Positions 6,139 through 57,878 of a stretch of 64,000 nt of DNA are shown piece after piece. The stretch covers positions 29,759-93,758 of the forward strand of contig JAFZUT010000018.1 in the NCBI GenBank assembly GCA_017618175.1, given 5' to 3'. The stretch is from Alphaproteobacteria bacterium. GTDB lineage: Bacteria > Pseudomonadota > Alphaproteobacteria > Rs-D84. The first letter of the stretch is position 1; each line of letters opens with the position of its first letter. The notes beneath the pieces were generated by a model. That model was given only the letters and a program-made list of their open reading frames with translations. It was not told where the DNA came from and did no database searches. A program made the position numbers and the translations under genes.

Positions 6139-8553
6139 CTATAACTCAATCGGCGGGAAACAATCACCACCCGCATCCGGACAGCAATTGAAACCTTGGT
6201 CACCCATATCGGTGTATGTTTCCCCCGGACAGCATCCATTCGCATCCGGTGCCGCCCCACCATCACACGTCACAACCGAGGTGCTTTGTGTTGTGGTGGA
6301 TGAACCAGACGAAGAAGTTTTCTTGAACGGATTTTGAATTGAACCATCGTCGTTATATTTCAATCCCAAAACCTGTTCATTATATGCCTGGGAACCTTGT
6401 GGGGTTTTGGTTGCCATCTGTTGTTGCTGGTTTTCAAACACCGCCTTTTGTTTTGCATTATTTATCGCATCATATGTCCCCATCGAACGGCAATAGAAAT
6501 CAACAGTATTGAAATTATAACCCCGCCGTTCCATTTCCGTTTTTTCATCGATGTCCGCCATATATGCCCCGGTTTCTTTACCATTAGTATCTTTAACAGG
6601 GGTGCAAAATTCACTTATATTTGCGACCAACATTGAACGAACCTGACCAATCAATTCTTCTGTCTTGGATGGATCTGTTTCCGTAAAGTCATCTTCTTTG
6701 CCATCACGCTTTGGTGAATCCGGATAAGGCAATATTGCGCATCTGCGTGTATCGCCATTGTCTTGACCACAGGTCACAAACAAATCAACAGGTGAAAACA
6801 CCGTGATACGTGTACCGGCGGCGATTGAAAAAGGCGGTGTGGTGTTATCCATTAAATCCACCAATAATTTTGTGGCAACATTGTTCCACGCGGTAATAAT
6901 CTCGTTTTTGGCCAATTCAGATGAACGCACGGTGCCGGTCTGCACAACCGTGTTGTTATCCAAGTCAATTTGATTCACAAATGCATCAGATATAGGTGCA
7001 ATCATATTCACGGCCGCCGGTACAATTGCGGTCAACATCGGCATAACAAATTGTTGCAGATAATCGGTGCTGCCGTGACCGGGAACGCCTTTGCGTCCCT
7101 GGGAATCAGCGGCAAACGGCTGTTTTTTATTATCTGTAAAGTTAAATTCCACACCATCGGGGCGAATAAACTGGTACCATTTTATTTCCATACGACCAAC
7201 CGCCTTGTACGGGCCGGGCAATTCGCCCGTCACATATCCCAACATCAATGTTCCGGTTGGAATAATAACCGTACGACCATTGTCGGAATAAACATTACGG
7301 TCAACCGTTGCGCGTACCGGCAAACCACTTTGCAATAATTTAGAATCTGCCTGAATATCCGATACAATTGTTGCCGGAATCGGTTTATATTGACGCAGAA
7401 CAAAACTGCGGTCATATGGACGTGTTCCAACAACACCTTTATCATTATCGTATCCAGTAAATTCAGTTGTCTTTTTGCGCGGTTTTAACCTAACACCCGG
7501 TTGACGTGCCCCCGGCATAGATGCCAATTGTGAAGCCAACATATCCATATTATCAATTTGTTCCGCACGGGTGACGGTGTGACGCGTTGATGTGCCGCCA
7601 CCAAGCCGGGGCAGGCGGTCCGTCACAACAAAACGTATGTGTTCTGCGTCCGATCCAATTTTGCGTGTTGGATTATTTATGTCCATAATATAACCCGTGT
7701 CTGCATTATACATTCCGGTCGGCGTGTCACAGTTCGTATCAGAAAACGGGTGATAATAATACGCGCCCCCCATTGGTTTTATCCAACCACTTTGAATACC
7801 GGCGGTGTTATATGCCGGAAACGCAAAGTCCGAACAATTATTTTTGAACATATTGCGCGGCACGGCAACCGGTGCATTGTATGTGGGTTCATTAAAACTG
7901 ATTGGTGCCGCAATATTGTTCAGGTCATCTTGAAAATCCGTATCGTAAGCCCAATCATCAATTAAAGGTTCCGGTTCTGGCTCCGGCTCTGGTTCTGGGG
8001 CGGGCGCATCCGTACGTGACATTGGTTTTTCGCGCGCCCCGATAACCAGTGTAATAGCCTTGGGGTTATCAACTTCGGCACCGGTTTCAAACGCACTCCA
8101 CGTAATTGCGACATTTGCGTCAGTGGTGTTAATTGGGTGTTCTGGTTGATATTTAATATTTATGACGCACGGGGCATTTTCTTCGATAATGGTCTGGTCA
8201 TTTTTACATGTTTCGGTTGCAGAAATTCCAACGGCATCATTTGTATCGCCTTCGACCCGCACAACAACATTTGTAATCTGAACGCGCGTATTTGCAGAAA
8301 CAAAAAATTCTGTTTCGCGAACTTCACCCACCACCGTATCAGACCAATCGACCGGCGCATCGGGCGTAATAATCAATTCCGGTGTGGCCGGCAAAGAATT
8401 CGGGTCAATCACAACGCGTTGTGCCTTGCGATTTCCAACCAATATCATCAGTAACACAACCACGATAATAATTGCCGCCGCCAACAATATCCATTGAACA
8501 TATTGTGGCGTAGTTTTGCGAAACTCCGAAAATTGTTCACCGATTTTACTCAT
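6139..8553 (-). CDS. virB10: VirB10/TrbI-like type IV secretion core protein, enlarged (804 aa) with extra N-terminal, proline-rich and Cys-rich C-terminal regions
   Basis: N-terminal TM (WILLAAAIIIVVVLLMILV) and a (PE)n linker (APAPEPEPEPEPEP). VirB10/TrbI-type beta-barrel region at about aa 385-592 (LPVRATVDRNVYSDNGRTVIIPTGTLMLGY...RMEIKWYQFIRPDGVEF...AGTRITVFSPVDL). A further 212 aa follow, ending CDGGAAPDANGCCPGETYTDMGDQGFNCCPDAGGDC. Confidence 0.8.
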   Translation of the reverse strand: MSKIGEQFSEFRKTTPQYVQWILLAAAIIIVVVLLMILVGNRKAQRVVIDPNSLPATPELIITPDAPVDWSDTVVGEVRETEFFVSANTRVQITNVVVRVEGDTNDAVGISATETCKNDQTIIEENAPCVINIKYQPEHPINTTDANVAITWSAFETGAEVDNPKAITLVIGAREKPMSRTDAPAPEPEPEPEPEPLIDDWAYDTDFQDDLNNIAAPISFNEPTYNAPVAVPRNMFKNNCSDFAFPAYNTAGIQSGWIKPMGGAYYYHPFSDTNCDTPTGMYNADTGYIMDINNPTRKIGSDAEHIRFVVTDRLPRLGGGTSTRHTVTRAEQIDNMDMLASQLASMPGARQPGVRLKPRKKTTEFTGYDNDKGVVGTRPYDRSFVLRQYKPIPATIVSDIQADSKLLQSGLPVRATVDRNVYSDNGRTVIIPTGTLMLGYVTGELPGPYKAVGRMEIKWYQFIRPDGVEFNFTDNKKQPFAADSQGRKGVPGHGSTDYLQQFVMPMLTAIVPAAVNMIAPISDAFVNQIDLDNNTVVQTGTVRSSELAKNEIITAWNNVATKLLVDLMDNTTPPFSIAAGTRITVFSPVDLFVTCGQDNGDTRRCAILPYPDSPKRDGKEDDFTETDPSKTEELIGQVRSMLVANISEFCTPVKDTNGKETGAYMADIDEKTEMERRGYNFNTVDFYCRSMGTYDAINNAKQKAVFENQQQQMATKTPQGSQAYNEQVLGLKYNDDGSIQNPFKKTSSSGSSTTTQSTSVVTCDGGAAPDANGCCPGETYTDMGDQGFNCCPDAGGDCFPPIEL

Positions 8554-8577
8554 AATGACCCACCGTATTTTTGCGTA

Positions 8578-10131
8578 CTATTGAATACGAACCACTTGGC
8601 AACTGGCACCACTGAACTTTAACAATTGGTCGCAAAGTTTTTGTGCCGTATCAATATCCGGCATAGGCCCAATGCGCAACCGATACAAACGTGCCGCCGA
8701 AGATGTCGCGCCCAATTCGCCGACACCCTGTTCATCAACCGCATAAAATACGCTGTCTTTATATTTGGTCAGCAATCCTTGACCATCATTGCCACTGAAA
8801 CGCGCCATCAAATCTGCCCAGTAATCGTCCAATGCCTTGACACTGGTGTCTGATTTTAACTCGACCGCAACACCGCCTTGGTTCGTGGTAATAAGCGGAA
8901 TATTAGATTGCGGTAAATATGCCCCCGCCGTATTGCGCACCGTTGGCAACATGGTCATGCCGTTTGATGTTCCGCCGGTCGGCGTTCCATACATATTCAT
9001 CATAATTGCCCCCGATGTTGCCGCCGGCATATTCATTTGCACGCCATTTGTGGCCGGCATAGTGTTGTTTATATATGTTGGTGTCGTTGTGTAATTACCA
9101 TAACCGTTTTGAATTGCAACCTGGTCCGCGGTGTACAGGACGTTGTTCAACGATTGTCCCGACAACATACTTTGCGCAACATTCGCCTCGGCCAAGGCCA
9201 TAACACTTGCGGTGTCGGCAATCAAGAACGGTTTAGAACGTTTTTTGATACAAACAATGCGTTGACCACTGCGCAGAACCATATCGCCAACGGCCTCGAC
9301 AATCAACAACCGTCCGTCTTCGCCATCTGTGCGGAAACCAACCGGCGATTCGCCACCTTCGACCAACAACGATACAACCGGGCGTTGGGTCATAGAAATA
9401 ACTTTGTCGCCGAAATCAATATATGTAAACACCCGGTCGCGCCACACGCGTTCCGGCGCAATCACATAATCATCCGGGTTTGGAACAAATATATCTAAAT
9501 CAAAACGAAATTCGGACGGGTCAATTTTCATTGTTTTAATCCAATCATAATCTTCGCCGTCAACACCAATGGTTCCGCTTTTTGCCGGTGTCTTTTTGAA
9601 TATGGAATTCATGGCCCCACCGGTTTGTGCACCCGCAACGGCCATAGACGCCGGCAACCGTGCGCCACCATCCAATACAACATCAACCTGGGAATATGTG
9701 ATTTCCGATGCGTTTGACGGTTCGCTGCGCAGATAGAAAGTATAAACATTCCCAGATTTCCCCGTCACAATCAGGTTTGTATCGGAACCCATATTATCGG
9801 CCGCGGGCGTAATATACATTGTGCGACCACCCTGGGTTGCGTCAATGGAAAAGAATCCGTCATTGCCGACGATGGCCTCTTCTATTTGTTCGCCAACCGG
9901 TAAATTCACCATGGTCACCATACCATTGCGCAATTTAACCGGTAACACGGTTCCCGCATCCCAAGATAATTGGGCATATCCGGGTTTAATACTGCCCGAT
10001 GCCATATTTGCATTTGGGTTGTCCCATGCACCTTGGACGCCATAGTTCACCGCACGTGCGTCAAACGCAACAAACGCGACAATCGCGCCGATTAAAGATA
10101 TCTTTCCCGCAAATGATTTTAACAGTGTCAT
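8578..10131 (-). CDS. virB9: VirB9/CagX/TrbG-like type IV secretion core protein fused to a C-terminal SPOR-like domain
   Basis: Signal peptide. VirB9 N-domain pattern (VKLRNGMVTMVNLPVGEQIEEAIVGN...TNLIVTGKSGNVYTFYLRS) and C-domain pattern (PERVWRDRVFTYIDFGD...LLIVEAVGDMVLRSGQRIVCIKK). A Met/Asn/Thr/Gly-rich linker leads to the last ~99 aa, which match the SPOR pattern (LYRLRIGPMPDIDTAQKLCDQLLKFSGASCQVVRI). Confidence 0.8.
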   Translation of the reverse strand: MTLLKSFAGKISLIGAIVAFVAFDARAVNYGVQGAWDNPNANMASGSIKPGYAQLSWDAGTVLPVKLRNGMVTMVNLPVGEQIEEAIVGNDGFFSIDATQGGRTMYITPAADNMGSDTNLIVTGKSGNVYTFYLRSEPSNASEITYSQVDVVLDGGARLPASMAVAGAQTGGAMNSIFKKTPAKSGTIGVDGEDYDWIKTMKIDPSEFRFDLDIFVPNPDDYVIAPERVWRDRVFTYIDFGDKVISMTQRPVVSLLVEGGESPVGFRTDGEDGRLLIVEAVGDMVLRSGQRIVCIKKRSKPFLIADTASVMALAEANVAQSMLSGQSLNNVLYTADQVAIQNGYGNYTTTPTYINNTMPATNGVQMNMPAATSGAIMMNMYGTPTGGTSNGMTMLPTVRNTAGAYLPQSNIPLITTNQGGVAVELKSDTSVKALDDYWADLMARFSGNDGQGLLTKYKDSVFYAVDEQGVGELGATSSAARLYRLRIGPMPDIDTAQKLCDQLLKFSGASCQVVRIQ

Positions 10132-10158
10132 ATTTCCTTTCCCTTTTGCCTTTCATAT

Positions 10159-10818
10159 TTACTGTTTATACACCGTATCCAGTGGATCTCCACCACCTTC
10201 GACCGTATACCGCGAAACTTTGACCCCCAATGGGTTGTTCAAACGTTCCGCCCATTTAATTTGTGCATCATCCGTCATAGTAATTCCAATCAGGATTGTA
10301 TAATCTTTTTTGTCGGTTTGTCCATTATTATCTGAGCAATAATATTCAAATTTTACCGTGTATTGGTTGTCGCGTAATTGCATTGGCCGACCGCGGAAAT
10401 TCACGACACAGTTAAATGCAACATCGGGATAATCACTCATAATCGCCTGGTACAGTCCCGTTTTCTGGAACGCTTTGTATACATCTGGTGTGGACCATGC
10501 GGCAACGACGCCGTTGCTGCTACCCCATTTTTGCCGCATTATCGACATATTTTGTTCAATCTCATTGCGCGCACGCACATATTCCATAACAAATGCCTGG
10601 CGATAAGCCTCAAGATTTTCGTCATTTGGTGGCAATTCAGTAATTTGAATAACCGATGCACCTTCGGGTTTTGACGTTATAAAGAACACTTCCGGCCGGT
10701 TCAGCGGAAACATTTTTTCCAATGTCATAAACATTACAAACAACACAACCACGCACCCGGCGAACACAAAAACAAGCAATCTTGATAATAAAACCGGCGG
10801 TTCTATGCGGTTTTGCAC
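10159..10818 (-). CDS. virB8: VirB8-like type IV secretion inner-membrane protein
   Basis: 219 aa, single N-terminal TM, then a VirB8-type periplasmic domain (AFVMEYVRARNEIE ... NNPLGVKVSRYTVE, compare the canonical NPLGFxVTSYR ending). Confidence 0.75.
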   Translation of the reverse strand: MQNRIEPPVLLSRLLVFVFAGCVVVLFVMFMTLEKMFPLNRPEVFFITSKPEGASVIQITELPPNDENLEAYRQAFVMEYVRARNEIEQNMSIMRQKWGSSNGVVAAWSTPDVYKAFQKTGLYQAIMSDYPDVAFNCVVNFRGRPMQLRDNQYTVKFEYYCSDNNGQTDKKDYTILIGITMTDDAQIKWAERLNNPLGVKVSRYTVEGGGDPLDTVYKQ

Positions 10819-11003: not shown

Positions 11004-11603
11004 TTACGTTAACGGCGTATAGCACTTATTATTGCCGCACGCGCCACTGCAACAAGATTCGTTTTCGCTGCAATATTCGCCATCAACTTTACAATTACTT
11101 GCCTTGCCGCTTGGACGGCTGCTGTCGAATCCATCGGGTCCATAAACGATGCGTCCATGCAAGTTCCACAATAAACAATTACCGGATTCATCCGCGTCAA
11201 AACAATTTGCATAAACGGCGGTTGTTTCCGTCATTTCCGGCAAATTGTCCACCGTACTGGATATTTCATCCATCTCGTTATATAAATCATCCATAGCCGG
11301 AACAATATCACCCGCGGTCACCAGGTCCCCTTCGTGGCCTGAGACAACACCGCCGTTTTCATCGTCATAGCCTGTTTCAAAATCAAAAATCCCACGTTCA
11401 CCGATTACACCGTTACCGGTCGTTGTATATGTGACAACGGTTTCACCGGGGGTTGATGCGTTTGTTCCCGCCGCAGGTATTTTATTTTGTTTCAATGCAT
11501 CTTGGGCATCTACATAATCTTTGGATGTAACCGTGGAACTTGTTGCAAATGCGTTTAATGCTAAAACGGATGCGATTGCACCAATGAATAATGCCTGTCT
11601 CAT
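11004..11603 (-). CDS. Secreted protein (199 aa) with DYVD...KQxKI N-terminal motif, NCLLWNL motif and knottin-pattern Cys tail
   Basis: The ORF track starts at 11768, but the ATG at 11603 has RBS AAAGGGAGG and yields a signal peptide (MRQALFIGAIASVLALNAFA). Paralogous to 25848..26360. C-terminus is CKVDGEYCSENESCCSGACGNNKC. Confidence 0.75.
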   Translation of the reverse strand: MRQALFIGAIASVLALNAFATSSTVTSKDYVDAQDALKQNKIPAAGTNASTPGETVVTYTTTGNGVIGERGIFDFETGYDDENGGVVSGHEGDLVTAGDIVPAMDDLYNEMDEISSTVDNLPEMTETTAVYANCFDADESGNCLLWNLHGRIVYGPDGFDSSRPSGKASNCKVDGEYCSENESCCSGACGNNKCYTPLT

Positions 11604-11757
11604 AATATTCCTCCCTTTTTCCTTGTCGTCATCCCGATATAAATCGGGATCCCTTCTTTTTTCCTGATTTATAGTGTAACAAAAAGGTACCTTTTTTGTG
11701 ACCAGGTACCTTATTTTGTAAGTAATTGATTTTACTGAATCGCATTTTCTAAAAAAA

Positions 11758-11791
11758 GTGATGGACAAAAACGTACGTTTTTGACCATCAC
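11758..11791 (-). terminator. 34-nt near-perfect palindrome followed by T7 on the minus strand (terminator or attenuator in the leader of the 11603 gene)
   Basis: GTGATGGACAAAAACGT/ACGTTTTTGACCATCAC with one mismatch. The T-run follows on the minus strand. Confidence 0.5.
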
Positions 11792-27302: not shown

Positions 27303-28886
27303 TTACACGAATTTTTCAGGGATGATTTTGGTCATTTTTTTGAATATGCGTCTAAAAATTGTTGTGTCGGGGTCACGGGTGTACACACGTGGTTTTGTAT
27401 CCCCGGTTCTGCGCCCGGTCCATATTGTTTTATCGCCGTCTGTGGTCACGTGCCAAGATGTCTGGGTGTCGCGCATAATCATATCACGCACGCGCGCCGC
27501 GAATTCTGGGCTTTCAAATATCGCTACATTTTCTGTATTGTAATATGCGCTGCGTGGGTCCAGGTTAAAACTGCCTATCCACGAAATTTTGTCATCAAAA
27601 ACAATTGTTTTACTGTGCATAACCGAAAAGCACGATGGTTTGTTCAGGTGTCTGCGCCGTCCACCGCGCAAATTTTCCGCCGACAACATAAATTCATACA
27701 CGTCCGCACCGCCATTTATTAAATCGCGCCGATAATTTTCCCATTTTCCAAAGACGGTTGGCGCATTTGTTGATGCCAAAGAATTTGTAACAATGGTTAT
27801 ATGAACGCCGGCCTTTTGTTCGTTTTGCATCAATTTCATTCCGCCAATTCCCGGCACAAAATATGCCGCAGACACATACACACTGTGTCGGGTTTCGCGC
27901 CAAAGCCGGTTTAATGCCAACATAATTTCACCACGATATCGTTCTTTGCGTTCCATCGGCATTTCGACTTTTTCCGGTGGGTCTGCAATAAATCGACCGT
28001 GTCCCCAACAAAAATCGAACAGTTTATTTTTGAATTCGTATATCACCAAAGATATAATTTTATTATATCGGCGAACGCTTTCGTTACTGGTCCGTTCTAA
28101 TTCGGCAAAATTCCGTTCAAATTTGTTCATTGCGCAACGCGATTTAGCCTTTGGAATAACGAACGCAGGTACCGCCAAGTGATGCATCCAATATTTATTA
28201 AAACTGTCCGCGGCGCCACGCGTGATTTCGCCCAAGAACAAAACGTCTGTGTCGGAAAAATTTGATGCATCATCGGGCATAAAATAATTACTGCCCACAT
28301 TGCGACCGCCGGTAATCAACGCGACATTATCAACAATGAACAGTTTATTATGCATCCGCGAATTCAACCGGTTAAAATCCATCAATATCTGGGGATAGTA
28401 CAAAATGCGCGACCGATTTTTGACGGCATTAAAGATTTTCACTTCTATATTTGGATGTTGGTTCAGTAAAATTACATCTGCGATATCGGAACGTGTGCCA
28501 TAATCGTCAATCAGTATGCGCACCTTGACCCCGCGGTCGGCGGCATTTTTAAGTTCCCCAATTAAAATTCGCGAAGAAAAATCATTACTGTAAATATATG
28601 TTTGAATGTCAATGGTTTTTGTTGCCATACGCGCAAATGCGGCGCGAATGACAAACGCAGACAGGCCGTCTTCAATCAGTGTTGCGCCACTAACATTTTT
28701 CGATTGATTTAATTCAGTTTCATATTGTTTGGCAATTGGCGTCTGCATCGGGTCATATTCCGCATCCGCTGCGACAATTTTTGGGTTATATGTTGCCAAA
28801 CGTTTGTCGCGCAAACTGGTTGGGATGGTTGTGCAACCAACAAACGGCAACGCCAATAATAACCAAGAAAAATTACTCAAAGCCAT
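27303..28886 (-). CDS. Phospholipase D-family lipoprotein (two HKD motifs; ClsC/PLD-like)
   Basis: Lipobox signal (LLLALPFVGC). HKD motifs HNKLFIVDNVALITGGRN and HSKTIVFDDKISWIGSFN. Confidence 0.85.
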   Translation of the reverse strand: MALSNFSWLLLALPFVGCTTIPTSLRDKRLATYNPKIVAADAEYDPMQTPIAKQYETELNQSKNVSGATLIEDGLSAFVIRAAFARMATKTIDIQTYIYSNDFSSRILIGELKNAADRGVKVRILIDDYGTRSDIADVILLNQHPNIEVKIFNAVKNRSRILYYPQILMDFNRLNSRMHNKLFIVDNVALITGGRNVGSNYFMPDDASNFSDTDVLFLGEITRGAADSFNKYWMHHLAVPAFVIPKAKSRCAMNKFERNFAELERTSNESVRRYNKIISLVIYEFKNKLFDFCWGHGRFIADPPEKVEMPMERKERYRGEIMLALNRLWRETRHSVYVSAAYFVPGIGGMKLMQNEQKAGVHITIVTNSLASTNAPTVFGKWENYRRDLINGGADVYEFMLSAENLRGGRRRHLNKPSCFSVMHSKTIVFDDKISWIGSFNLDPRSAYYNTENVAIFESPEFAARVRDMIMRDTQTSWHVTTDGDKTIWTGRRTGDTKPRVYTRDPDTTIFRRIFKKMTKIIPEKFV

Positions 28887-28988
28887 ACGAACATTATACC
28901 GTCCCCATCACATTTAGCAAGTCAAATCAGCGTGAAAAAAATCCCAACACAGATAAAATTCATTTCATCCGTGTTTTTCACTTGCGTT

Positions 28989-29014
28989 GATAATCGTGAT
29001 AATGATAAAATAAT
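28989..29014. promoter_or_regulatory. Fur-box-like GATAAT hexamer array
   Basis: GATAAT-CGT-GATAAT-GATAAA-ATAAT lies 25-50 nt upstream of the 29039 start. GATAATGATAA matches the first 11 nt of the classical Fur consensus. Confidence 0.35.
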
Positions 29015-29038
29015 ACGGAACGGAAGGAAGATTTTACA

Positions 29039-32000
29039 ATGAAAAGACTTGCTATATTTATTGGTGGCCTGCTTGTGTTGCCCGCATTTGCTGAGGTTGC
29101 ACCTGTTTTATATGAAGATATTGAATACGCGGATGTTGTGTATGATGAATACGGCAATCCGGTGTATTACACCGATTATACGGACGCGGATTTAACCCCG
29201 GAAATGGACGAAAATGTGACGATGCCTTCTGTTCCTGCGTCACGCAGTGGATCCGCATCGCGTGCAAACACTAACCGCACAACAATCGGTCGAACGGTAC
29301 CCACAACCAATGCGGGTGCGGCCACGGGTCGTGCGTCTGCGGCAAATTCGTCACGTGTGGTGGCGGCGCGTACAACATCGAATTCTTCCCCACGTTCAAA
29401 CACCAATTCGCGCAGTGTTTCATCGCGTACAACATCAACCACGGCAACGCGCACAACAACCGATACAGATGCCACGCGGGCGGCGGCAACCCGTGCAACG
29501 GGCGGGGCGGGGCGTACCGCAACATCAACCCGCACAGGCGCATCCGGTGGTGCGACGGTGGCACGAACAACAACATCGCGTAATGCGACATCATCGCGCA
29601 CGGCAACGACCGGTGCACGTGTAAATCGTGCATCGACCAACGCGGCGGTGGGGGTGACCGGCAATGTTATATCTGCTGCGCCCATCCGGGTAACCACGGC
29701 CAGCGGCACAACAAACGCGGATTACCTTACCGACAGTGGCCAAAGATTATATAACGCAAACGGTGCACGTGTCAGTGTTGCGAACCGTGTTCCAACAATT
29801 CGTATGTCATCGGTCAGTGGCATTTCCACCGATACCACATCGGTCAGTGCGACCACCCCCGCAGAAATGGACGAATTGGCGGAATTAACCGATTATTGCA
29901 AGGCCCAATATGCGGCGTGCATGGATAATTATTGTAACGTCTTGGACGACAACCAAGGCCGTTGCAGTTGCAGTGCCAATATTAAAAATTATGCCAAGGC
30001 CGAGGCCGCATTGAAACAGGCAACCGAAGAATTGCAAGAGGTTGCACAAAAGATTCAATACATTGGTTTGTCCGCGCGCGAGGTTGAAACCCTGTTCACC
30101 CAGACCGAGGCGGAATTGAAAATGCAATCCACCACCGATACCAGTCAGTTAAAGACCAGTCTGGACAAGATAAAAGATATGATTATCGAGGTTCAATCCG
30201 GCAACGCATCATCTTCGAATTCGTCTTTCCTTTCGTTTGATTTATCGGGTCTGTTGGACTTTACTATTGACAGCACCGGTTTTGATTTATCTTCGTTCTT
30301 GGGTGGTTTTGGCACGAATTCAAACGGTATCAATAACCAACGCGGCGAAGAATTGTTCAAAACCGCAACAAATCGTTGCAAGGCGAACGTCTTAAAGGCC
30401 TGCACGGCCCAGGGTGTTGACGGTTCATTGGTTACGAACGCGTATGATTTAGAAATTGACCGCGAATGTATCGCCTATGAACGCAGCCTGAACGATTCCA
30501 ACGACCAAATGGTTGCAACGGTGCGCAACGCCAAAAGCGTTCTGCAAAAGGCGCGCCTGTTGGTGGAACAATCGAAAAACGAATACGATATGCGCGGATG
30601 CATAAACGCACTTGATTCCTGTATGCAGGATGAATACGTTTGCGGCACGGATTATGAAAAGTGCCTTGATCCGTCCGGCCGCTATATCGTGAACGGCGAA
30701 ATAGTTATTGGTACCGACCCGGGTCGCGCGGTGAATGGCATTGGAGACGCCACAAATGCCACGGGTGTGTTGGACGGCGATATATGCAGTATGAATTTGT
30801 ATAACGTTTGGAATTATGGTTCATCCACGGCGGGCCAAACAACGGCCGGTTGCAAAAACGCATGGAACAGTTACAGCCTGAACGGTTCCAACAATGGTAA
30901 TTTGGCGGATTATATAAACACAACCGTGACGGCAACTGCGGCCAAGAACGGCGGTTTGGGTATGTCTGAATTTATCCAAAACAAAATCGGTTATGTTGAT
31001 GGCGACAAAAATTATGGTATGTGCATATCGGTGCTGAATAAATGCCAAGATTACACATACACCGGCAAGGGTTCTTCGCGTAAATATAACCCCGTGAACG
31101 AGGTTGTAAAACAATACTTGGATCGTATGTTGATTCAAATCAAGGCAAAGCAAGACCAAATCTTGGCGGAACACGCGGAAAGTTGTATAACGGACGTGAC
31201 AACATGCCTGTCCCAGAACAATTATCCGTTTGATGAGGCATCAACGAACCAGGTTCAGGCGAATATCGCAATCAACGCGTGCCGTTCAACAATCGTGACA
31301 TGTATGTCGGTGAATGGTTATTCGGTTGAAAACCCGACCCCATCTGATTTATCACGTTGGATTTGTGGTATTACCACCGGCAGTGTCGATTGCATCCCAA
31401 ATTCCGGCGGCGGTTCCGGGGGGGGTGAGACAACAACCTATACAGTTACATACAATTGCAACGGTGGAACTGGGACGGCACCGGCGTCACAAACGGTTCA
31501 ATATAACACTCAATTCATGACACGTGCCAACACATGTACCAAACCGAGTGCAAGTCAAACGTTTGATGGGTGGCTTGTGGGAAGTACGTCATCTGATAGT
31601 GTTGTTTGGCTTGCAAATAGGACATATACATACAATTATCAATCTGATAAAACACTTTATGCGCGTTGGACTACGGTGACGGGTTCTTGCACTCCAACGA
31701 CACTTGGAAATTGTAACGAAACAACGTGCGGAAGTTTGGGGGGAAATTACATATGGTGTACTACCGGGTCTAGCAGACCGTCTTGTAAATTAAGAACAGA
31801 TTGTCCGGCCGCATGCAGCGCGACCAATTTGCCGGCATGCGACAGTGATGAGTGTGGGTTGTACAATGGTAATTGGTGCGCATCGGGAACAACGATTAAC
31901 TTCTCATGCAGTGATACTGCAGGTGCCTGTTGTTTGGGCAATCCAACCGGTTGCACGCGCAATCAGTGTGATGCCCTGAATTATAAATGGTGTGTCCAAA

Positions 32001-32200
32001 GAACTGGCGATACACCCAAGTGTACGAGTCAGTCATATCAAGTGGAATGTTGTGTTGGTTCTGTCGCGGGTTGCGCACGCGAGCCGGATTGTATCGCCGT
32101 TGGTGGAACGTGGAATGGGACCAGTTGCAGTGGCAGTGGAGATGATGGTAGGTACCAATATAATACGATAGAAATTGAAGGTGCGGAAGTAAATCCATAA
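29039..32200 (+). CDS. Large secreted multidomain Cys-rich protein (1053 aa)
   Basis: Signal peptide (LLVLPAFAEV). Arg/Ser/Thr/Ala-rich low-complexity region at about aa 66-215. Long helical region with six C-x6-7-C motifs. One Listeria-Bacteroides (InlB B-repeat) type domain at aa 800-878 (YTVTYNCNGGTG...FDGW...TLYARW). Four tandem 4-Cys modules at aa 884-1030. Confidence 0.8.
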   Translation: MKRLAIFIGGLLVLPAFAEVAPVLYEDIEYADVVYDEYGNPVYYTDYTDADLTPEMDENVTMPSVPASRSGSASRANTNRTTIGRTVPTTNAGAATGRASAANSSRVVAARTTSNSSPRSNTNSRSVSSRTTSTTATRTTTDTDATRAAATRATGGAGRTATSTRTGASGGATVARTTTSRNATSSRTATTGARVNRASTNAAVGVTGNVISAAPIRVTTASGTTNADYLTDSGQRLYNANGARVSVANRVPTIRMSSVSGISTDTTSVSATTPAEMDELAELTDYCKAQYAACMDNYCNVLDDNQGRCSCSANIKNYAKAEAALKQATEELQEVAQKIQYIGLSAREVETLFTQTEAELKMQSTTDTSQLKTSLDKIKDMIIEVQSGNASSSNSSFLSFDLSGLLDFTIDSTGFDLSSFLGGFGTNSNGINNQRGEELFKTATNRCKANVLKACTAQGVDGSLVTNAYDLEIDRECIAYERSLNDSNDQMVATVRNAKSVLQKARLLVEQSKNEYDMRGCINALDSCMQDEYVCGTDYEKCLDPSGRYIVNGEIVIGTDPGRAVNGIGDATNATGVLDGDICSMNLYNVWNYGSSTAGQTTAGCKNAWNSYSLNGSNNGNLADYINTTVTATAAKNGGLGMSEFIQNKIGYVDGDKNYGMCISVLNKCQDYTYTGKGSSRKYNPVNEVVKQYLDRMLIQIKAKQDQILAEHAESCITDVTTCLSQNNYPFDEASTNQVQANIAINACRSTIVTCMSVNGYSVENPTPSDLSRWICGITTGSVDCIPNSGGGSGGGETTTYTVTYNCNGGTGTAPASQTVQYNTQFMTRANTCTKPSASQTFDGWLVGSTSSDSVVWLANRTYTYNYQSDKTLYARWTTVTGSCTPTTLGNCNETTCGSLGGNYIWCTTGSSRPSCKLRTDCPAACSATNLPACDSDECGLYNGNWCASGTTINFSCSDTAGACCLGNPTGCTRNQCDALNYKWCVQRTGDTPKCTSQSYQVECCVGSVAGCAREPDCIAVGGTWNGTSCSGSGDDGRYQYNTIEIEGAEVNP

Positions 32201-32221: not shown

Positions 32222-33658
32222 ATGAAGAAATTTTTGACATGTGCGTTATGTTTTATGCCGTCTATTGCCGGTGCGGTGACTTTGTATTACACTCCGGGCC
32301 GTGAATGTCCCGGTTTGTACTTGAATTCTGCTGAAATCGGTTGCCCGGCGGATTCCCTGCGTGTGACACAATTAAATGTGACATCCCGTGCAGACGCAGA
32401 TTTTACTGGATATAATGTTGGCAATGTTGAAATTGTAGATTCCACCGGCAATATTAAATCAAACGCGGTTGAAACATTGGCCGCCGCAGCCGCAGCCGGC
32501 AATACTGTTTCCAAAGTCACCGGAAATTACGAATGCCAAACCGGCGCCCGGGAAAACAGCAACGGTGTGTGTGTCAATGCACTGTCTTTGGACACATCCA
32601 CATCTGAAAATATCGCATATATTGATTGGGAATCTTTGGTGAATAACACAAATCTTGATTCTGGTTACGAAATAGATCCCAATCAAATAAAAGATGATGG
32701 CGGCAAAGGCTGCTATTACGACAGGGATTTCGATATAGTGATTCATTGGTGCCCAAAAAATTATTCCGCAATTGATTATTCATATGGTGGTGCACATATT
32801 GCATACGGAAATAATCCCGTTGATTGGTCCGCTTTGCCATGCAATCAATCGACCGAGACATATCATTATCATTGGAACGGGGGAACATCTCTTGGAACAT
32901 ATACCAAAAATGGTGTTACACAAACTGAACTGGTGTTTCCATCTGCACTGGGTTGGTCTCCGCGCGGTTTGTATATTGTGGGTTATCCGGAATTCAAACC
33001 GAACGACAGTTCGTTTAATAACATTCCGTATTATTCGTTGCTTAAAACAATTGCAGATAATTTGGTGACAGAACAAAGTACGACGTGGGGACGTGCACGT
33101 TTGGGTTTACCTTTTAATCAGGCAAATGTCACCGATAGAATAATATTAAACAACACTGTGAATGGTTATGGCGACGCAAATGCAAATTGGCAGATTTGGA
33201 CGTGCCGTGGCGATGTGCAAACTGTTCATATGTATGCGGCATGGGCGCGTGATTGTGCCCCAGGTGATAGCAGCGCAACATGCACACGTCAAATTCAACG
33301 TCATGGTTTATCAAATCCGGACAAAGGCGACACCATGTATTACACATCGTGCACCAGTGGCACGCTTTCCGGCGATGGCACATATAACCCGTCTTGCGGC
33401 GAATGTTCGGCGACAAATTTAGGTCAATGTAGTAAAAAAGACTGCGTATTTTCGAACGCACATTGGTGTGTGGTTGGTGGTACGGAACAATGTGTGGCCC
33501 AAGGCGCATCCGCCAGAAGTTGTTGCGTTGACGATTTTACCGGCTGTGACAGCAAGGGTTGCGGCCTGATGGGTGGCACATGGGATGACACGACATTGAC
33601 ATGTACAGGCAATGACGGTGATGGTGACACCGGAGACGAAAGTCAAGAGGGTGCATAA
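32222..33658 (+). CDS. Secreted Cys-rich protein (478 aa) sharing the C-terminal 4-Cys module
   Basis: Starts 21 nt after the previous gene with RBS GAGGGA. Signal peptide present. The C-terminus carries two copies of the same module (CSATNLGQCSKKDCVFSNAHWCVVGGTEQC, CCVDDFTGCDSKGCGLMGGTWDDTTLTC) and an acidic tail. Confidence 0.8.
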   Translation: MKKFLTCALCFMPSIAGAVTLYYTPGRECPGLYLNSAEIGCPADSLRVTQLNVTSRADADFTGYNVGNVEIVDSTGNIKSNAVETLAAAAAAGNTVSKVTGNYECQTGARENSNGVCVNALSLDTSTSENIAYIDWESLVNNTNLDSGYEIDPNQIKDDGGKGCYYDRDFDIVIHWCPKNYSAIDYSYGGAHIAYGNNPVDWSALPCNQSTETYHYHWNGGTSLGTYTKNGVTQTELVFPSALGWSPRGLYIVGYPEFKPNDSSFNNIPYYSLLKTIADNLVTEQSTTWGRARLGLPFNQANVTDRIILNNTVNGYGDANANWQIWTCRGDVQTVHMYAAWARDCAPGDSSATCTRQIQRHGLSNPDKGDTMYYTSCTSGTLSGDGTYNPSCGECSATNLGQCSKKDCVFSNAHWCVVGGTEQCVAQGASARSCCVDDFTGCDSKGCGLMGGTWDDTTLTCTGNDGDGDTGDESQEGA

Positions 33659-33664
33659 AAAATT

Positions 33665-33690
33665 AAAAACGGGTGTTGCCCCGTTTTTTT
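33665..33690 (+). terminator. Terminator after the two-gene Cys-rich operon
   Basis: A-run, short CGGG...CCCG hairpin, then T7. Confidence 0.5.
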
Positions 33691-40014: not shown

Positions 40015-41568
40015 ATGAGAAAGGCGTTAGTTTCGTTTTTGCCGGCAATTTTACTTCATTTTGTGGCCGTTGGGTCAAATGAAGGGGTGCCGGTTTATTA
40101 TCAAAAAGACAAGGCCGCAACATCTAATCAGTTAAATTATGGCGAATACGCGGACAAAGGATATACCAAATACGTCGGTACATCTGGTTCCAAACAGGTG
40201 GTCGGCACACGAACATACACATATCGTAATGAACGCACAAAAACCCAGGATATCCCAACATATATCGATGGTATGACATATACAAATTCTGGGGCGATGA
40301 CGGTGAACGGTGTTGCGACATCAATGGAACTTGAACGCAGAACACACATTTATGCCGGATATTCGCGGCGGTTTGCAGACTTTGAATTTCAAACGGGTGT
40401 AAATTCTATTCTTGAATGGGATGATATGGTTTTTAACGAGGTCAATGTTGGTGCCCGTCATGTATTTTCTTTGCACAATTTTGATTTGTTTGCGTTTGGT
40501 GAATACACATATGGCGATATGTCCCACGGTGGGCTGTCTATGGATTATGATTTGGAACCGTATGATTGGAATACGCCGAACGATGGAATTTTCACTATAT
40601 CTATGGGTGACCAATCCGGGCGTTCGCATCATTTGCGTTTCGGCATTGGGGCGCACCACGTGTGGGATATCGGCGGGTGGAAATTTTCACCGGTTATCGG
40701 TTATGAAATTTTCAAGCACGATTTGAAAATGTCCGATCACCTGTATCCTAACCAGGGTGTATACCTGCCATTGATGACCAGTGGTGGCGAATATGTATAT
40801 GGTGATGCCGAAGGAAACTATTTTTCTATGCCGACCAATGTCACACCACCCGATAATTGGTACCAGGTTTGTATGGGCCCCGAAGATATGCGTGTCGTGA
40901 ACCAATCCACCGGCAGCGCGATTGGTGGGTACGTGACGGGTTATGGAAACTTGTTGACCACGATGGAATATGACCCAAGTTGGGGTATTGTGCCGTGGGG
41001 CGTACCCGAAGGTGATTGCGTTATCATCGGTGGTGACGGCCCGATTAAGGTTGGTGGTGTGACGCACATTTACAACACAACGTGGAGTGGTTTCTATTTC
41101 GGGTTAGAGGTGGAAAAGCAAATGACGCTTGCGGATAAATTGCGTTTCTATTTCCAGGTCGGTTTGCCCAAGTATTCATCCGAAGGCATTTGGCCGAACC
41201 GTACCGATTGGCAACAAAGCCCAAGTTTCTTGGACGAAGGCAGCAACGGATCGTATTCTTATGCCGCGGAAATGGAATATGACCTGCGGTTGTCATCGCG
41301 TTTGCAATTGGCGTTAAAGGTTGACACAAATCTGTTCCATGTGGGCAAGATTCCGGGAAAACTGTATATTGCCGAATACACAGATTTCGTGTATGACGAA
41401 AATGGTCAATTGGTGGTATATGAAGGTATAGATCCAATAACGGGCGAAACGGTTCTGTATCCAGAATTAAATCAGGTTGCCGCCCATACCGAACACATCA
41501 GCAATTCTTTGAAACAGGCAACCTGGCAATCATTTGGATTGCACATAGGATTTAAATACGCATTTTAA
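40015..41568 (+). CDS. Outer-membrane beta-barrel protein (517 aa)
   Basis: Hydrophobic N-terminus, alternating beta-strand pattern rich in Tyr/Gly, aromatic C-terminus ...GFKYAF. Confidence 0.6.
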   Translation: MRKALVSFLPAILLHFVAVGSNEGVPVYYQKDKAATSNQLNYGEYADKGYTKYVGTSGSKQVVGTRTYTYRNERTKTQDIPTYIDGMTYTNSGAMTVNGVATSMELERRTHIYAGYSRRFADFEFQTGVNSILEWDDMVFNEVNVGARHVFSLHNFDLFAFGEYTYGDMSHGGLSMDYDLEPYDWNTPNDGIFTISMGDQSGRSHHLRFGIGAHHVWDIGGWKFSPVIGYEIFKHDLKMSDHLYPNQGVYLPLMTSGGEYVYGDAEGNYFSMPTNVTPPDNWYQVCMGPEDMRVVNQSTGSAIGGYVTGYGNLLTTMEYDPSWGIVPWGVPEGDCVIIGGDGPIKVGGVTHIYNTTWSGFYFGLEVEKQMTLADKLRFYFQVGLPKYSSEGIWPNRTDWQQSPSFLDEGSNGSYSYAAEMEYDLRLSSRLQLALKVDTNLFHVGKIPGKLYIAEYTDFVYDENGQLVVYEGIDPITGETVLYPELNQVAAHTEHISNSLKQATWQSFGLHIGFKYAF

Positions 41569-47211: not shown

Positions 47212-47799
47212 TTATTCGATATTCATATTATCGATTACAAATTTCCAATCTATTAAACCATTCAAAAACACATCGACAAAATCTGCACGTCTATTTTGAT
47301 AATCTAAATAATATGCGTGTTCCCATAAATCCAAAGTCAATATTGGTTTTTTGCCGTGTGCAATGGGCGTGTCTGCATTTTTTGTCGCAATAATTTCGAA
47401 TCTTTTATTATCATATGTCAACCAAACCCAGCCCGATCCAAAAACATCATTGGCGACAGATTTGAATTTTTCTTTGAATTCGGCCGCGCCACCAAATGCA
47501 TCTGATATTAAATCGGGAATCAAATTATTTCCGCGTCCCAAACAATTGAAAAAGAATTCATGATTAAAGACCTGGGCCGCGTTATTAAATATTTTTTGTG
47601 CGGACGCATCGCGTGCCGAATTCACAATTATTTCGCGCAAATCCATATCTGCATATTTTGTGTCTGCAATCAGTTTATTTAGGTTGGCAATATATGTCGC
47701 CAAATGCTTATCGTGATGCAATCGCACGGTTTCAACCGACATAATGGGAACCAAATCTGTTTCGCGAAAAGGCAATGGAAAATCATTTAGGTTAAACAT
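47212..47799 (-). CDS. sodB: Fe/Mn superoxide dismutase
   Basis: 195 aa from an internal ATG with RBS AAAGGAG. Motifs LHHDKHLATY and DLWEHAYYLDYQNRR. Confidence 0.93.
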   Translation of the reverse strand: MFNLNDFPLPFRETDLVPIMSVETVRLHHDKHLATYIANLNKLIADTKYADMDLREIIVNSARDASAQKIFNNAAQVFNHEFFFNCLGRGNNLIPDLISDAFGGAAEFKEKFKSVANDVFGSGWVWLTYDNKRFEIIATKNADTPIAHGKKPILTLDLWEHAYYLDYQNRRADFVDVFLNGLIDWKFVIDNMNIE

Positions 47800-47884
47800 A
47801 TCTTTAACTCCTTTTGAAAAATATTGTACAGAATAAAATTTTTGCCGCCACAGGAAAAATAGTTTAATTTTTTTCAAAAACAAC

Positions 47885-47914
47885 TTGCACCGATGCATAT
47901 GTTATTTCTATAAT
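47885..47914 (+). promoter_or_regulatory. Sigma70-like promoter
   Basis: TTGCAC, an 18-nt spacer, then TATAAT, 27 nt upstream of the 47941 ATG (RBS AAAGGAG). Confidence 0.5.
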
Positions 47915-47940: not shown

Positions 47941-48531
47941 ATGAAAAAAATATCTATGTTTGGGGCATTGATTGGTGCGTTATTTGGGGTGACCGCATAC
48001 GCGGCGGATATCACCGTTTATTATTCGCCAACATGTCCGCATTGTCATCATGCACGCGATTTTATTTCTAATAATTTAATTTATGAATATCCGGAATTGA
48101 ATGTGACCATGGTCAATGTTATGGAATCTGCAAATCGTCCGGAATTTATGGACACATTGAAGAAATGCGAATACGAATCGGGCGGCGTTCCGGTTTTGGT
48201 TATCGGTGAAAAATGTTTCCAAGGTTACGCGGATTCTATGGCGGATGATTTGCGTGCCGCGGTCGAGGCCGATATGACGGACGCGGCCAAATCCATCGCG
48301 GCGGAAAATAAAAAGGCGATTGAGGCGGATGCAGACGCGTTCAAGCGGGTGCACGAAGACAGGCTAAATGCAATTGTCGAACGCGAAATCAAAAGCGCCG
48401 ATGATGACGCGCAAAAAAAAAATAGAACGGTAAATAAAAAATCGAACGATAGTTGGGTTTTCTATGTAATCTTGGTCGTGTTGGTTTTGGGATTGGGATT
48501 CGTGTTAACGCGTAAAGGCAACAAAAAATAA
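47941..48531 (+). CDS. Exported thioredoxin-fold protein (CPHC) with C-terminal membrane anchor
   Basis: Signal peptide, YYSPTCPHCHHARDF redox motif, charged linker, terminal TM (WVFYVILVVLVLGLGFVL). Confidence 0.6.
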   Translation: MKKISMFGALIGALFGVTAYAADITVYYSPTCPHCHHARDFISNNLIYEYPELNVTMVNVMESANRPEFMDTLKKCEYESGGVPVLVIGEKCFQGYADSMADDLRAAVEADMTDAAKSIAAENKKAIEADADAFKRVHEDRLNAIVEREIKSADDDAQKKNRTVNKKSNDSWVFYVILVVLVLGLGFVLTRKGNKK

Positions 48532-51307: not shown

Positions 51308-51546
51308 AGATACACCTCTTTACTATGATTACCACCATTTCTTATAACGATATAATAAAATGGTGTTTTTTGTCAAGGCTTGTTCAATTGCATTATTGTT
51401 TTGACTTTATTCCCACATTGCGTCATCATATTATGGTTATATTCTCGGTATGCGCTGTTGCCAAGAATGGGCGGTGCAGGGGTATAATACCAATCTTGCC
51501 AATAATGGGGGTTGGTGGTGAACAAAATAAACATAAGGAAAATTTT

Positions 51547-52539
51547 ATGAAAAAAATCATTAGTTTGGCGGTCGCGTCTGCGGCGATTACAACGTCTGCG
51601 ATGGCTGCGAATATGGAAAATCCGTTGTTTTTACCATCGGCCGGTGATGTGTATTCAAAAACATCAATCGGTTTGATGTACAAGATCACAGATTCCACCG
51701 ATAACCAAGAATTACGTAACCATGATGGCGAAGTCGAATTCCCAATTTGGCGCCCGGTTCAAGAATTGGGTGTTGGTATCACCGATCGTTGGGCGGTTCA
51801 CGGTGCCATCGGGTACACATATGATGGTGACATTGACCGCAAAGGTTTTCACCTTGGACGTTTGGGAACAACGTACCGCGTGATTAAATCTTTGGATGGT
51901 TATGTATGGGATTTATATGGTGATTTGCATATGGGTGGTATCGAAAAGATGAAGGGTTCTTTGAATATGGTGTCCCCGGGTAAATTTGTGTTTAATTACG
52001 ACAATTATTCAAATGGTCGTTGGGGGGCACATGTTGGAACAAAGTTCGGTCGTACTTGGTCGAATTTAACCGCCAGCATTTTTGGTGAAGTATTGCGCAC
52101 ATGGGGCAACCATAACAATGAAATCAATGTTTCCGAATTGGCCGCAATGTTGCCCGGGTTGCCGGACAAATTGTCGGTTGATATAAAATCCACGTGGGAG
52201 GTTAATGCCGGTGCGAACATATTCTATCAAATGACTAATCGTTGGTCTGGCGGTTTAGGTTTCCAATATAAATATCACGCAACCAACGGATTGGAAGGCG
52301 TTTATACCGATTTACCGGCCGCGATTGCACCGACCGTTGAAGGTATGTTGGCGGAATACAAAGATATGAAAGATCATTTTAACGAATATGCGATTACTTT
52401 GACGCTGGCGTATCAATTGCGTGACGGTGCCCAGGTTGCATGGTATATCGAAGATACACTGGATACCGGTGCGCGTTTGTCGGCAAATACGACGGATGTC
52501 AAGATTGAAACAGGGTTCCGTGTGAACTTTTTGTTCTAA
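51547..52539 (+). CDS. Outer-membrane beta-barrel protein (330 aa)
   Basis: An internal ATG with RBS AAGGAAA gives the signal peptide MKKIISLAVASAAITTSAMA. Ends ...GFRVNFLF. Confidence 0.7.
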   Translation: MKKIISLAVASAAITTSAMAANMENPLFLPSAGDVYSKTSIGLMYKITDSTDNQELRNHDGEVEFPIWRPVQELGVGITDRWAVHGAIGYTYDGDIDRKGFHLGRLGTTYRVIKSLDGYVWDLYGDLHMGGIEKMKGSLNMVSPGKFVFNYDNYSNGRWGAHVGTKFGRTWSNLTASIFGEVLRTWGNHNNEINVSELAAMLPGLPDKLSVDIKSTWEVNAGANIFYQMTNRWSGGLGFQYKYHATNGLEGVYTDLPAAIAPTVEGMLAEYKDMKDHFNEYAITLTLAYQLRDGAQVAWYIEDTLDTGARLSANTTDVKIETGFRVNFLF

Positions 52540-52651
52540 TTTTTGATTTGATGGGAATAAAACGGGTCCAATTTGGACCCGTTTTATATTAAACGCTTTT
52601 TTTAATGTCTTTTTTATGATATAATACTCCAAGAAAGGTAAGAAAAAGAGA

Positions 52652-53758
52652 ATGAGAAAAATCAAGGTTTCTGCCGCTTTTATGGGGTTTTCTATTGTCG
52701 CGATGGGTGCGGCCGGTGCCGCCTATCCGGTGTACCAGCAACAGTATCAACAACAATATTCACGTGACGTAAATTATCAACGGACCGGTGTTGTCCAGTT
52801 GCCTGCGACAAATAGCACGGTTTTGACGGTGAATTCTGCGGTTGCGGCGCAACCAACACGTGTGACCGGGGCTTTGCCAAAGGTTGGCGCGGCGGCGACC
52901 GCGGCGGGACGTCAATATTATCAACCGGCGGATTATGATCGCTTAGCCGATAGTGGTTTATATGTTGGTATTTCTGCGGCCTATGCCGCCAGTATATCGG
53001 GCAGTATTCATGCAGATTATTCGGGCGAAAAAGATGCCTATGTTGTTCCGGGTGCATTTGCGTCTGCGGATTTTGATACAGATACCGTTATACCGCTTCA
53101 GGTTTCGGTTGGTGCGGCATTAAATAACGATTTTCGTGTAGATTTTTCTTATACGCGTTATTCGGGCCTTGGGTATCCGGATAATGTAATGACGGCGGAT
53201 TATACCGGTGCGGCAAATATAAGCGCATCGGTCGAAGGTGGCGCCATAACCGCAAATACAACAATGTTGAATTTGTATTATAATCTGGATTCTTATACCG
53301 GTTATTTGGCGGGCGGTTCTTTGCGGCCATATATCGGTGTTGGTGTCGGTATTTCATTGAATACTATTTCCGATTATGTTGTTTATGATGACACGTATTA
53401 TAAAATCATCGAAGATTTGGGTACAACAATTGGTAATGCGGGCAAATTGACGGGTATATCGGATGTTTACGCGTATCATAATGGTGGCACGAACGAACAA
53501 TTGGCATTTATGGTCGAAGGTGGTATAACGACCGACCTTGGCGGTGGAATCAAGATGGATTTCTTTGCGCGGTATGCAAACCTGGGCAAGGTTAAAACAT
53601 CGGGCAGTATCGTTTTATCTCAAACCGAATGGTTGTCTGATGGGTACGGTGGCGAAGTTATGGCGGACTATGACAGTGTATTTCATTATACCAATTGGTA
53701 TGAAAGCGGCCGTCTTTCTATGATTGATGTTGGTGCGCGTTTAAGATTACAATTCTAA
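52652..53758 (+). CDS. Outer-membrane beta-barrel protein (368 aa, Omp25/31-like)
   Basis: Signal peptide, Gln/Tyr-rich N-terminal extension, beta-barrel region ending ...GARLRLQF. Confidence 0.65.
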   Translation: MRKIKVSAAFMGFSIVAMGAAGAAYPVYQQQYQQQYSRDVNYQRTGVVQLPATNSTVLTVNSAVAAQPTRVTGALPKVGAAATAAGRQYYQPADYDRLADSGLYVGISAAYAASISGSIHADYSGEKDAYVVPGAFASADFDTDTVIPLQVSVGAALNNDFRVDFSYTRYSGLGYPDNVMTADYTGAANISASVEGGAITANTTMLNLYYNLDSYTGYLAGGSLRPYIGVGVGISLNTISDYVVYDDTYYKIIEDLGTTIGNAGKLTGISDVYAYHNGGTNEQLAFMVEGGITTDLGGGIKMDFFARYANLGKVKTSGSIVLSQTEWLSDGYGGEVMADYDSVFHYTNWYESGRLSMIDVGARLRLQF

Positions 53759-53785
53759 GGTTCACCGTAACAGGAGAGAGTGCGG

Positions 53786-57720: not shown

Positions 57721-57878
57721 TAAAACAACCACCATTTGGTGGTCGTTTTATTTAACCGATTCACACGCCAACGGGACACTCGATTTGTGGTGGTCTGGGA
57801 AAAAAATATTAAGTTTTTTTAAGACATGTTTTGCAATTTATTATAAATTATGTCATACTTTCCCCAAGAGGGAACGAC

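Follow-up and report, generated by a model that had tools for sequence, protein, structure and literature searches.

Several described proteins resemble, each in its own way, the product of the gene which we discuss here, a 1053-amino acid (aa) protein encoded at 29039-32200 (+ strand) on contig JAFZUT010000018.1 (GCA_017618175.1); coordinates without further label are positions in the 64,000-nt stretch of this contig that was analysed (the window). Chlamydial OmcB consists of a divergent basic N-terminal adhesion segment, which binds heparan sulfate, followed by a highly conserved Cys-rich body (PMC2229832). TraN, the mating-pair stabilisation protein of the F plasmid, is a surface protein with 22 conserved Cys, all of which are predicted to form intramolecular disulfides, and a variable tip which sets partner specificity (PMC9246713). 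With OmcB the protein would have in common that it is a Sec-exported, Cys-rich envelope protein of a reduced genome with a basic N-terminus before the Cys-rich body, and with TraN the many conserved Cys, the conserved body and the variable region. In contrast to OmcB, its basic region is ~200 aa long, contains Arg only and follows an acidic Tyr-rich head, and its body is helical; in contrast to TraN, which is mostly beta-sheet, plasmid-borne and part of F-type transfer, the family is helical and chromosomal, at a conserved housekeeping locus. OmcB homology (Chlam_OMP6) was not reported in a Pfam scan at E values up to 1, and no sequence or fold similarity to OmcB was detected. TraN gave no Pfam match either, the gene neighbours are housekeeping genes, and the VirB8-10 genes of the window are P-type and lie ~18 kb away. 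Every membership test for both failed, and the two serve at most as functional analogies.

Spaced helix Cys pairs lock neighbouring helices in the twin Cx9C (CHCH) proteins and in the Cys-rich Sel1-repeat proteins of Helicobacter. Here the spacing differs (C-x6-C, once C-x7-C), there is a run of four Cys at heptad distance and no internal repeat unit, and neither Sel1 nor CHCH was matched by Pfam in the protein. The exported metacyclic invariant surface protein of Trypanosoma brucei (5vtl), a disulfide-bearing elongated helical bundle, ranked fifth in a Foldseek search, but the match is not significant (E=1.9, probability 0.11, template modelling [TM] score 0.11-0.20) and points to a general resemblance at most. 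Lastly, aa 798-880 show the pattern YTVTYNxNGG...F.GW...LYA.W of the Listeria-Bacteroides repeat proteins, and other members of the family carry up to five or more copies. In the protein under study, the repeat is a single accessory tail domain, a Cys-containing variant which scores below both curated cut-offs, and it is uninformative on the conserved 750-aa N-terminal part.

Pfam and NCBIfam scans of the protein returned this sub-threshold repeat only, with scores at chance level (E≥0.02) over the core (aa 268-788), and scans of distant and long-tailed members returned no core match, only more Listeria-Bacteroides repeats. Searches of the PDB by sequence (phmmer) and by profile gave nothing relevant, and a Foldseek comparison of a core model with a predicted local distance difference test score (pLDDT) of 84 gave best E values of 0.84 against the PDB (TM score <0.25) and 1.0 against BFVD. 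The family is described neither in the paper on Enterousia (PMC12306168) nor in what keyword searches of the literature returned. An earlier note, made on this DNA from the letters alone, was aware of no described family with this combination of parts, and the Pfam, NCBIfam, PDB and Foldseek searches, all without a core match, agree with it; no known family claims the protein as a whole. The core is a new domain family without a detectable fold relative; it is confidently modelled, has no counterpart in Pfam, the PDB or BFVD, and deserves a family entry of its own. In kind, though, such proteins are familiar: exported, modular and rich in Cys, their body conserved and their tail variable. As to its role we lean, tentatively and at somewhat less than an even chance, towards an attachment protein of the envelope or surface, exported by Sec, in which the conserved part would be a stalk and the variable tail would do the binding; the surface location is an inference.

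The open reading frame (ORF) is complete, begins with ATG and is deposited as MBO4700588.1, a 'hypothetical protein' of an alphaproteobacterial metagenome-assembled genome (MAG); the identical product has been called on five contigs. The ORF and all of the features listed for it in the earlier note were found. Close homologs are 1056-1071 aa in length, and in comparisons with relatives every region of the protein, the low-complexity one included, has a ratio of nonsynonymous to synonymous substitution rates (dN/dS) well below 1. Because of the five identical contigs, the similar length of the homologs and the purifying selection on the low-complexity region, the ORF is genuine and intact rather than an artefact; the five contigs and the selection likewise rule out a pseudogene or a sequencing error, including one which would break the frame within the low-complexity region. 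The gene, among the largest in such genomes, is preceded by the strong Shine-Dalgarno sequence GGAAGGAAG (29021-29029, +), read directly from the sequence nine nt before the ATG, and by a promoter-like site, TTGATA-16-AATAAT (28987-29014, +), which agrees with the consensus at 10 of 12 positions and is a pattern match only.

The core, of ~500 aa, contains 18 Cys, each of which is invariant in the alignments or conserved to ≥90%, even at identities as low as 31%. Twelve of these (287, 294, 299, 309, 311, 447, 455, 477, 521, 528, 535 and 542) are located in core A (aa 283-560; 29885-30718, +), a region of long helices which is the most conserved part of the protein (dN/dS 0.04-0.11) and the sole part of the core common to distant paralogs. 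The other six (662, 669, 716, 723, 748 and 755) are found in core B (aa 643-788; 30965-31402, +), delimited like core A by alignment and model, which comprises a small alpha/beta region and a helical hairpin and is for the most part modelled at pLDDT 89-98. Between them lies a variable insert recognised by its high entropy (aa 561-642; 30719-30964, +); it is rich in indels, has a column occupancy of 0.29-0.79, carries a non-conserved Cys pair (583, 605), and is skipped by the matches of distant relatives, which fall into two stretches. The six C-x6-7-C motifs reported earlier (CKAQYAAC, CKANVLKAC, CINALDSC, CISVLNKC, CITDVTTC and CRSTIVTC) are all present, and two more, CMQDEYVC and CGTDYEKC, complete a run of four Cys at seven-residue spacing (521/528/535/542). 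The total of eight such pairs in the protein compares with 1.76 expected in shuffles (P ~1.5e-4), and most of them, with the C-x6-C spacing or in one case C-x7-C, lie on modelled helices. An origin of the core from duplicated units was rejected, the best probability in hhalign comparisons among four core segments being 12.7%.

In an attachment protein of this kind the C-x6-C pairs, which are two helical turns apart on one helix face, would probably staple neighbouring helices into a rigid stalk; since the distance between Cys at i and i+7 is too great for a bond between the two, they are expected to bridge to neighbouring helices. The disulfides, up to nine, would be introduced by a periplasmic thiol oxidase once the protein has been exported. 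The (near-)invariance of the Cys is as expected of structural disulfides and so consistent with the earlier description of the protein as disulfide-stapled. The term 'fibrous' in the same description is not shown, the model being a helical bundle with a small alpha/beta region (predicted TM score, pTM, 0.71). Elsewhere in the window, at 47941-48531 (+), is encoded a secreted protein of the glutaredoxin/thioredoxin fold with a signal peptide, a DsbA-type CPHC motif and a C-terminal transmembrane anchor, which could be the periplasmic thiol oxidase. Next to its gene lies that of a superoxide dismutase of the Fe type, extended by 40 aa at the N-terminus (47212-47898, -).

The Cys might alternatively be metal or redox ligands, and the core a metal-binding or electron-handling envelope protein. 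They are invariant and regularly spaced, and in the anoxic habitat of a lineage without respiratory chains stable disulfides are not guaranteed. We nevertheless regard this as very improbable, for the Cys are not spaced as CxxCH, as CxxC or as in any other known metal site, no Pfam metal-binding family was matched, helix Cys at i and i+7 in an exported protein match helix-stapling disulfides, and the gene for a CPHC oxidoreductase that carries a signal peptide is close by.

The AlphaFold model of the core, built with 107 diverse homologs, is a confident one (pLDDT 84.2, pTM 0.71); with long helices, a small alpha/beta region and 58% helix overall it accords with the ~500-aa helical region of the earlier note. 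A first run with 80 close homologs was poor (pLDDT 61), and Foldseek then gave generic long-helix matches only. Within core A, the acidic/aromatic loop FDLSGLLDFTIDSTGFDLSSF (aa 400-420; 30236-30298, +) occupies invariant or near-invariant alignment columns in the close relatives, and the same type of motif recurs in distant members. It is modelled as disordered (pLDDT 41-49), and this combination of conservation with lack of structure in the model suggests a binding or membrane-contact motif.

Could the protein be a released soluble effector or toxin, for example a helical protein active on membranes or a factor passed to a partner cell, which would leave the cell perhaps through a tripartite pump, perhaps by another route? 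Its conserved hydrophobic/acidic loop, FDLSGLLDF...GFDLSSF, might make contact with membranes, and among the weak Foldseek matches are the Tc-toxin and YaxAB/PaxB pore proteins. These matches are non-significant, however (E≥0.8, TM score <0.25), as is typical of any query with long helices, and we dismissed those to flagellin, Tc-toxin, YaxAB, SH3BP5 and alpha-catenin as chance; moreover, nine staples would hinder the large rearrangements which pore formers need. In one distant lineage of higher GC content (32% identity; L083, 5109-12391, and L085, 236-5068) the family gene directly follows an operon for an OEP protein, a membrane-fusion protein, an ATP-binding cassette (ABC) ATPase and a MacB-type permease. 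This neighbourhood is restricted to that single lineage, being absent from the window and from the related locus L001, and export of the MacB/TolC type was for this reason not adopted. The family also has no match in plasmids or phages. Altogether we hold an effector to be improbable.

The protein is, to judge from its N-terminus, exported via Sec, in keeping with the signal peptide of the earlier note. Its signal peptide, MKRLAIFIGGLLVLPAFA (29039-29092, +), of the signal peptidase I type, is near-invariant in the alignments of the family (LLVLPAFAEVAP) and is predicted by the A-x-A rule to be cut before EVAP. There is no lipobox with a Cys at +1; the signal peptide ends in LPAFA, followed by EV, and the first Cys is residue 287. 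The acidic Tyr-rich head noted earlier occupies aa 19-62 (29093-29224, +) and by composition has a net charge of -12 without a single Arg or Lys; across the family, 45 aa contain on average 11.2 acidic and 1.7 basic residues. Next comes a basic, disordered low-complexity region of Thr, Ala, Ser, Arg and Gly (aa 63-267; 29225-29839, +), delimited by composition and the family alignment. Its Arg/Ser/Thr/Ala character had been recognised correctly, but its length is ~200 aa rather than the ~150 aa given. It contains 25 Arg and no Lys (net charge +20), keeps the short motifs SRVVAARTT, RAAATRATG, LY and RVPTIR, and is under purifying selection (dN/dS 0.2-0.37). Since family-wide it is composed of 11.8% Arg against 0.9% Lys, and since Arg is still frequent in a relative on a contig of 29% GC, arginine is selected for. 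In an attachment protein, this charged N-terminal region might serve in anchoring or in self-association, through arginine contacts with phosphates, polyanions or tyrosines.

As was also seen earlier, the DNA of the low-complexity stretch is locally GC-rich (0.61-0.62 at 29250-29700, against 0.43-0.44 for the window). Three ORFs overlap it in other frames, at 29176-29709 (-, 177 aa), 29247-29624 (+) and 29271-29633 (-), and these are by-products of the GC-rich stretch, as the earlier note had held of several antisense ones, because it is the sense frame that is conserved and shows purifying selection. The region has no tandem DNA repeats of note, nor notable tracts prone to slippage.

Downstream of the core, a Gly/Ser linker, SGGGSGGGE (aa 789-797; 31403-31429, +), which includes the reported GGGSGGG at aa 790-796, leads to one domain of the Listeria-Bacteroides (InlB B-repeat) type with Cys at 807 and 833 (aa 798-880; 31430-31678, +). 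The PF09479 (Flg_new) match at aa 801-875 (24.6 bits, E=2.8e-5) falls under the gathering cut-off of 27, and that to TIGR02543 (13.6) is below its cut-off of 20.95. In BLASTP, aa 791-887 align to four or five repeats of P0103 (E=5e-7 to 2e-4), a PF09479-positive relative with the NCBI name InlB B-repeat protein, and precomputed PF09479 matches exist for P0001 (96% identical; PF09479.17), P0002 and P0005. The single domain of this type which had been proposed is consequently supported by homology to the P0103 repeats, though below both curated cut-offs.

Following it are the four tandem 4-Cys modules of the earlier note. They were located by a regular expression as C-x6-7-C-x4-5-C-x5-10-W-x0-5-C (31688-32128, +; 22 Cys), hereafter Cys-Trp modules, and start at aa 884, 926, 965 and 1005, each of the first three having two additional Cys in the spacer to the next. 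Scans of aa 881-1053 with Pfam and NCBIfam, which would cover PSI/EGF-like and Myxococcus-type Cys-rich repeats, gave none except a chance match to bCoV_NS8. A homolog search with the Cys-module tail alone yielded 15 candidates and one match, which we take to reflect the word-index limit for short queries and not rarity. A hidden Markov model of six modules was too short and found nothing at E≤0.01, its source proteins included, and the regular expression with a shuffle control was used in its place: 26 of 263 family proteins contain the motif, where shuffles give 0.2. Outside the family proteins the module was seen only in the gene directly downstream.

The tails vary from 0 to 1055 aa across the relatives, and many members end within 10 aa of the core with exactly 18 Cys. 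The tail evolves ~10 times faster than the core; in the comparison with the closest species representative, L003, dN is 0.28-0.37 in the tail and 0.025 in core A. In L004 the tail has been replaced, since core A is 97% identical while the tail is only 33-39% identical. The four-part architecture singled out earlier is accordingly not the unit of conservation, its repeat and Cys modules being one of many interchangeable tails. What defines the family, on comparison of the sequences, is the series of signal peptide, acidic head, Arg-rich region and 18-Cys core; repeat and modules are accessory, because many members stop right after the core.

A homolog search found >1,226 proteins, almost all of them unnamed or 'hypothetical', and an exhaustive HMMER search of 50%-identity representatives gave 578 clusters at E≤1e-3, down to ~31% identity. 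Relatives are present in 280 GTDB species representatives (one genome per species being scanned). Our survey of hosts and lineages rests on the best 80 of these 280, which are MAGs of uncultured gut or rumen Alphaproteobacteria from cattle, goat, yak, deer, chicken and human; many are labelled Candidatus Enterousia, the sole genus named. A plasmid or phage origin was rejected for lack of any tblastn match in plasmid or phage collections. Enterousia belongs to the order Rs-D84. Genomes of this order measure ~0.75-1 Mb and encode neither the TCA (tricarboxylic acid) cycle nor respiratory chains or standard transporters, and a life dependent on partners has been proposed for the order (PMC12306168).

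The gene order rpoB, rpoC, plsX, phospholipase D, family gene, M13 peptidase is kept in a relative 62% identical. The family gene is usually in single copy; tandem duplicates were found at three loci, L065, L070 and L076, of Enterousia-type genomes. Distant lineages have two or three paralogs, in which signal peptide and basic low-complexity region are shared but, of the core, the first half only. At L086 (GCA_031283185.1; 5677-12125) these paralogs are in tandem among genes of mobile-element type (Bro-N, RhuM, N6 methyltransferase), and a further paralog site in a distant genome is L083, 669-2936. A typical member with 61% core identity lies on a 108-kb contig labelled Bacteroides fragilis (L045; CAVGNU010000001.1), probably a mislabelled or mis-binned assembly.

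The combination of a variable insert, a swappable tail and a conserved body matches proteins which contact other cells, and the Listeria-Bacteroides repeats in this and other tails of the family are content of the adhesin type. Insert and tail would face outward and bind the surface of a partner cell or host, a role which would fit the partner-dependent lifestyle proposed for this reduced-genome lineage. Several points nevertheless weigh against an attachment protein. A Sec substrate in a diderm cell stays periplasmic by default, and neither an outer-membrane anchor, lipobox, beta-barrel or sorting signal in the protein nor a dedicated secretion system adjoining the gene was found. Many members are tail-less, for which reason binding by the tail is not the core function of the family, and purifying selection on the core is strong, which sets it apart from typical coat proteins with antigenic variation. 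Furthermore, with anoxic habitats and no respiratory chains, the re-oxidation of a DsbA-like oxidant is questionable. An autotransporter or type V adhesin was rejected; the Pfam scan detected no beta-barrel translocator, and the C-terminus consists of the Cys modules and a short acidic tail.

An alternative is a periplasmic envelope scaffold, a protein staying between the membranes, in which the Arg-rich region would bind peptidoglycan or phospholipid head groups and the stapled core act as a strut or spacer, much as in the periplasmic, cross-linked part of chlamydial OmcB. A porin of the outer-membrane type (Pom) and a lytic transglycosylase for peptidoglycan mark the organism as a diderm with a periplasm; the protein has a Sec signal but no feature that would target it to the outer membrane, and no secretion system adjoins the gene; its core is extremely conserved and usually in single copy, as for a housekeeping part of the envelope; and many members lack a tail. 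What a scaffold hardly explains are the tails of up to ~1,000 aa, made of Listeria-Bacteroides repeats and other modules and swapped between close relatives, and the variable insert within the core, which suggests exposure. We consider it possible but rather unlikely.

The attachment reading can be taken further, to a proposal that we judge unlikely as a whole. According to this, the core would be a new disulfide-stapled helical fold and the main structure by which a partner-dependent lineage attaches to other cells or to the host; the Tyr-rich acidic head and the Arg-only region would anchor or self-assemble it at the surface through arginine-tyrosine and arginine-phosphate contacts, and the C-terminal cassettes would set partner specificity. 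Pairing of arginine with tyrosine is known from phase-separating proteins. Bacteria of the Rs-D84/Enterousia group are widespread in the guts of humans, livestock and poultry; none has been cultured, their genomes are smaller than ~1 Mb, and a dependence on a partner organism has been proposed. As it is large, exported and present in 280 species representatives, with a conserved body and swappable outer parts, the protein is an obvious candidate for the apparatus of contact with the partner, and could serve in practice as a target for antibodies, pull-downs and cell sorting. For the present it stays a well-characterised hypothetical protein.

The focal gene probably forms an operon with the next one, which starts 21 nt after its stop codon with its own Shine-Dalgarno sequence. 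This gene (32222-33658, +) specifies a 478-aa protein with a signal peptide (MBO4700589.1), which has no Pfam or NCBIfam match and carries at its C-terminus two Cys-Trp modules of the focal type. It is found in 19 of 82 related loci, in most of those 19 directly downstream, and is followed by a pattern match to a hairpin terminator, AAAAACGGGG-CAAC-ACCCGTTTTT (33665-33688), with a 9-bp stem. On the other side, and divergent from the family gene, is the gene for the phospholipase D-family protein (27303-28886, -), a conserved neighbour in L001, whose N-terminal hydrophobic leader ends in GC and which is possibly a lipoprotein.

Among the more remote genes of the window, that at 40015-41568 (+) encodes a 517-aa protein with a match to Pom, the family of Protochlamydia outer membrane proteins (E=1.8e-9), and is conserved at the same place in L001. 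Three consecutive ORFs of 404, 368 and 563 aa (51325-55471, +) have no match in Pfam or NCBIfam, and near them are a phage-type lysozyme (56744-57247, -) and a MafB19-like deaminase (57831-58427). A 254-aa ORF at 11004-11768 is likewise without a Pfam match. Type IV secretion genes (6139-10818, -) are chromosomal and include VirB10/TrbI (804 aa; 6139-8553) and VirB8 (10159-10818); that the focal protein is a component or substrate of such a system was rejected, VirB8-10 being ~18 kb off and without a link to the family gene. The VirB9/CagX protein encoded between them (8578-10131, -) ends in a SPOR domain, a fusion which is unusual.

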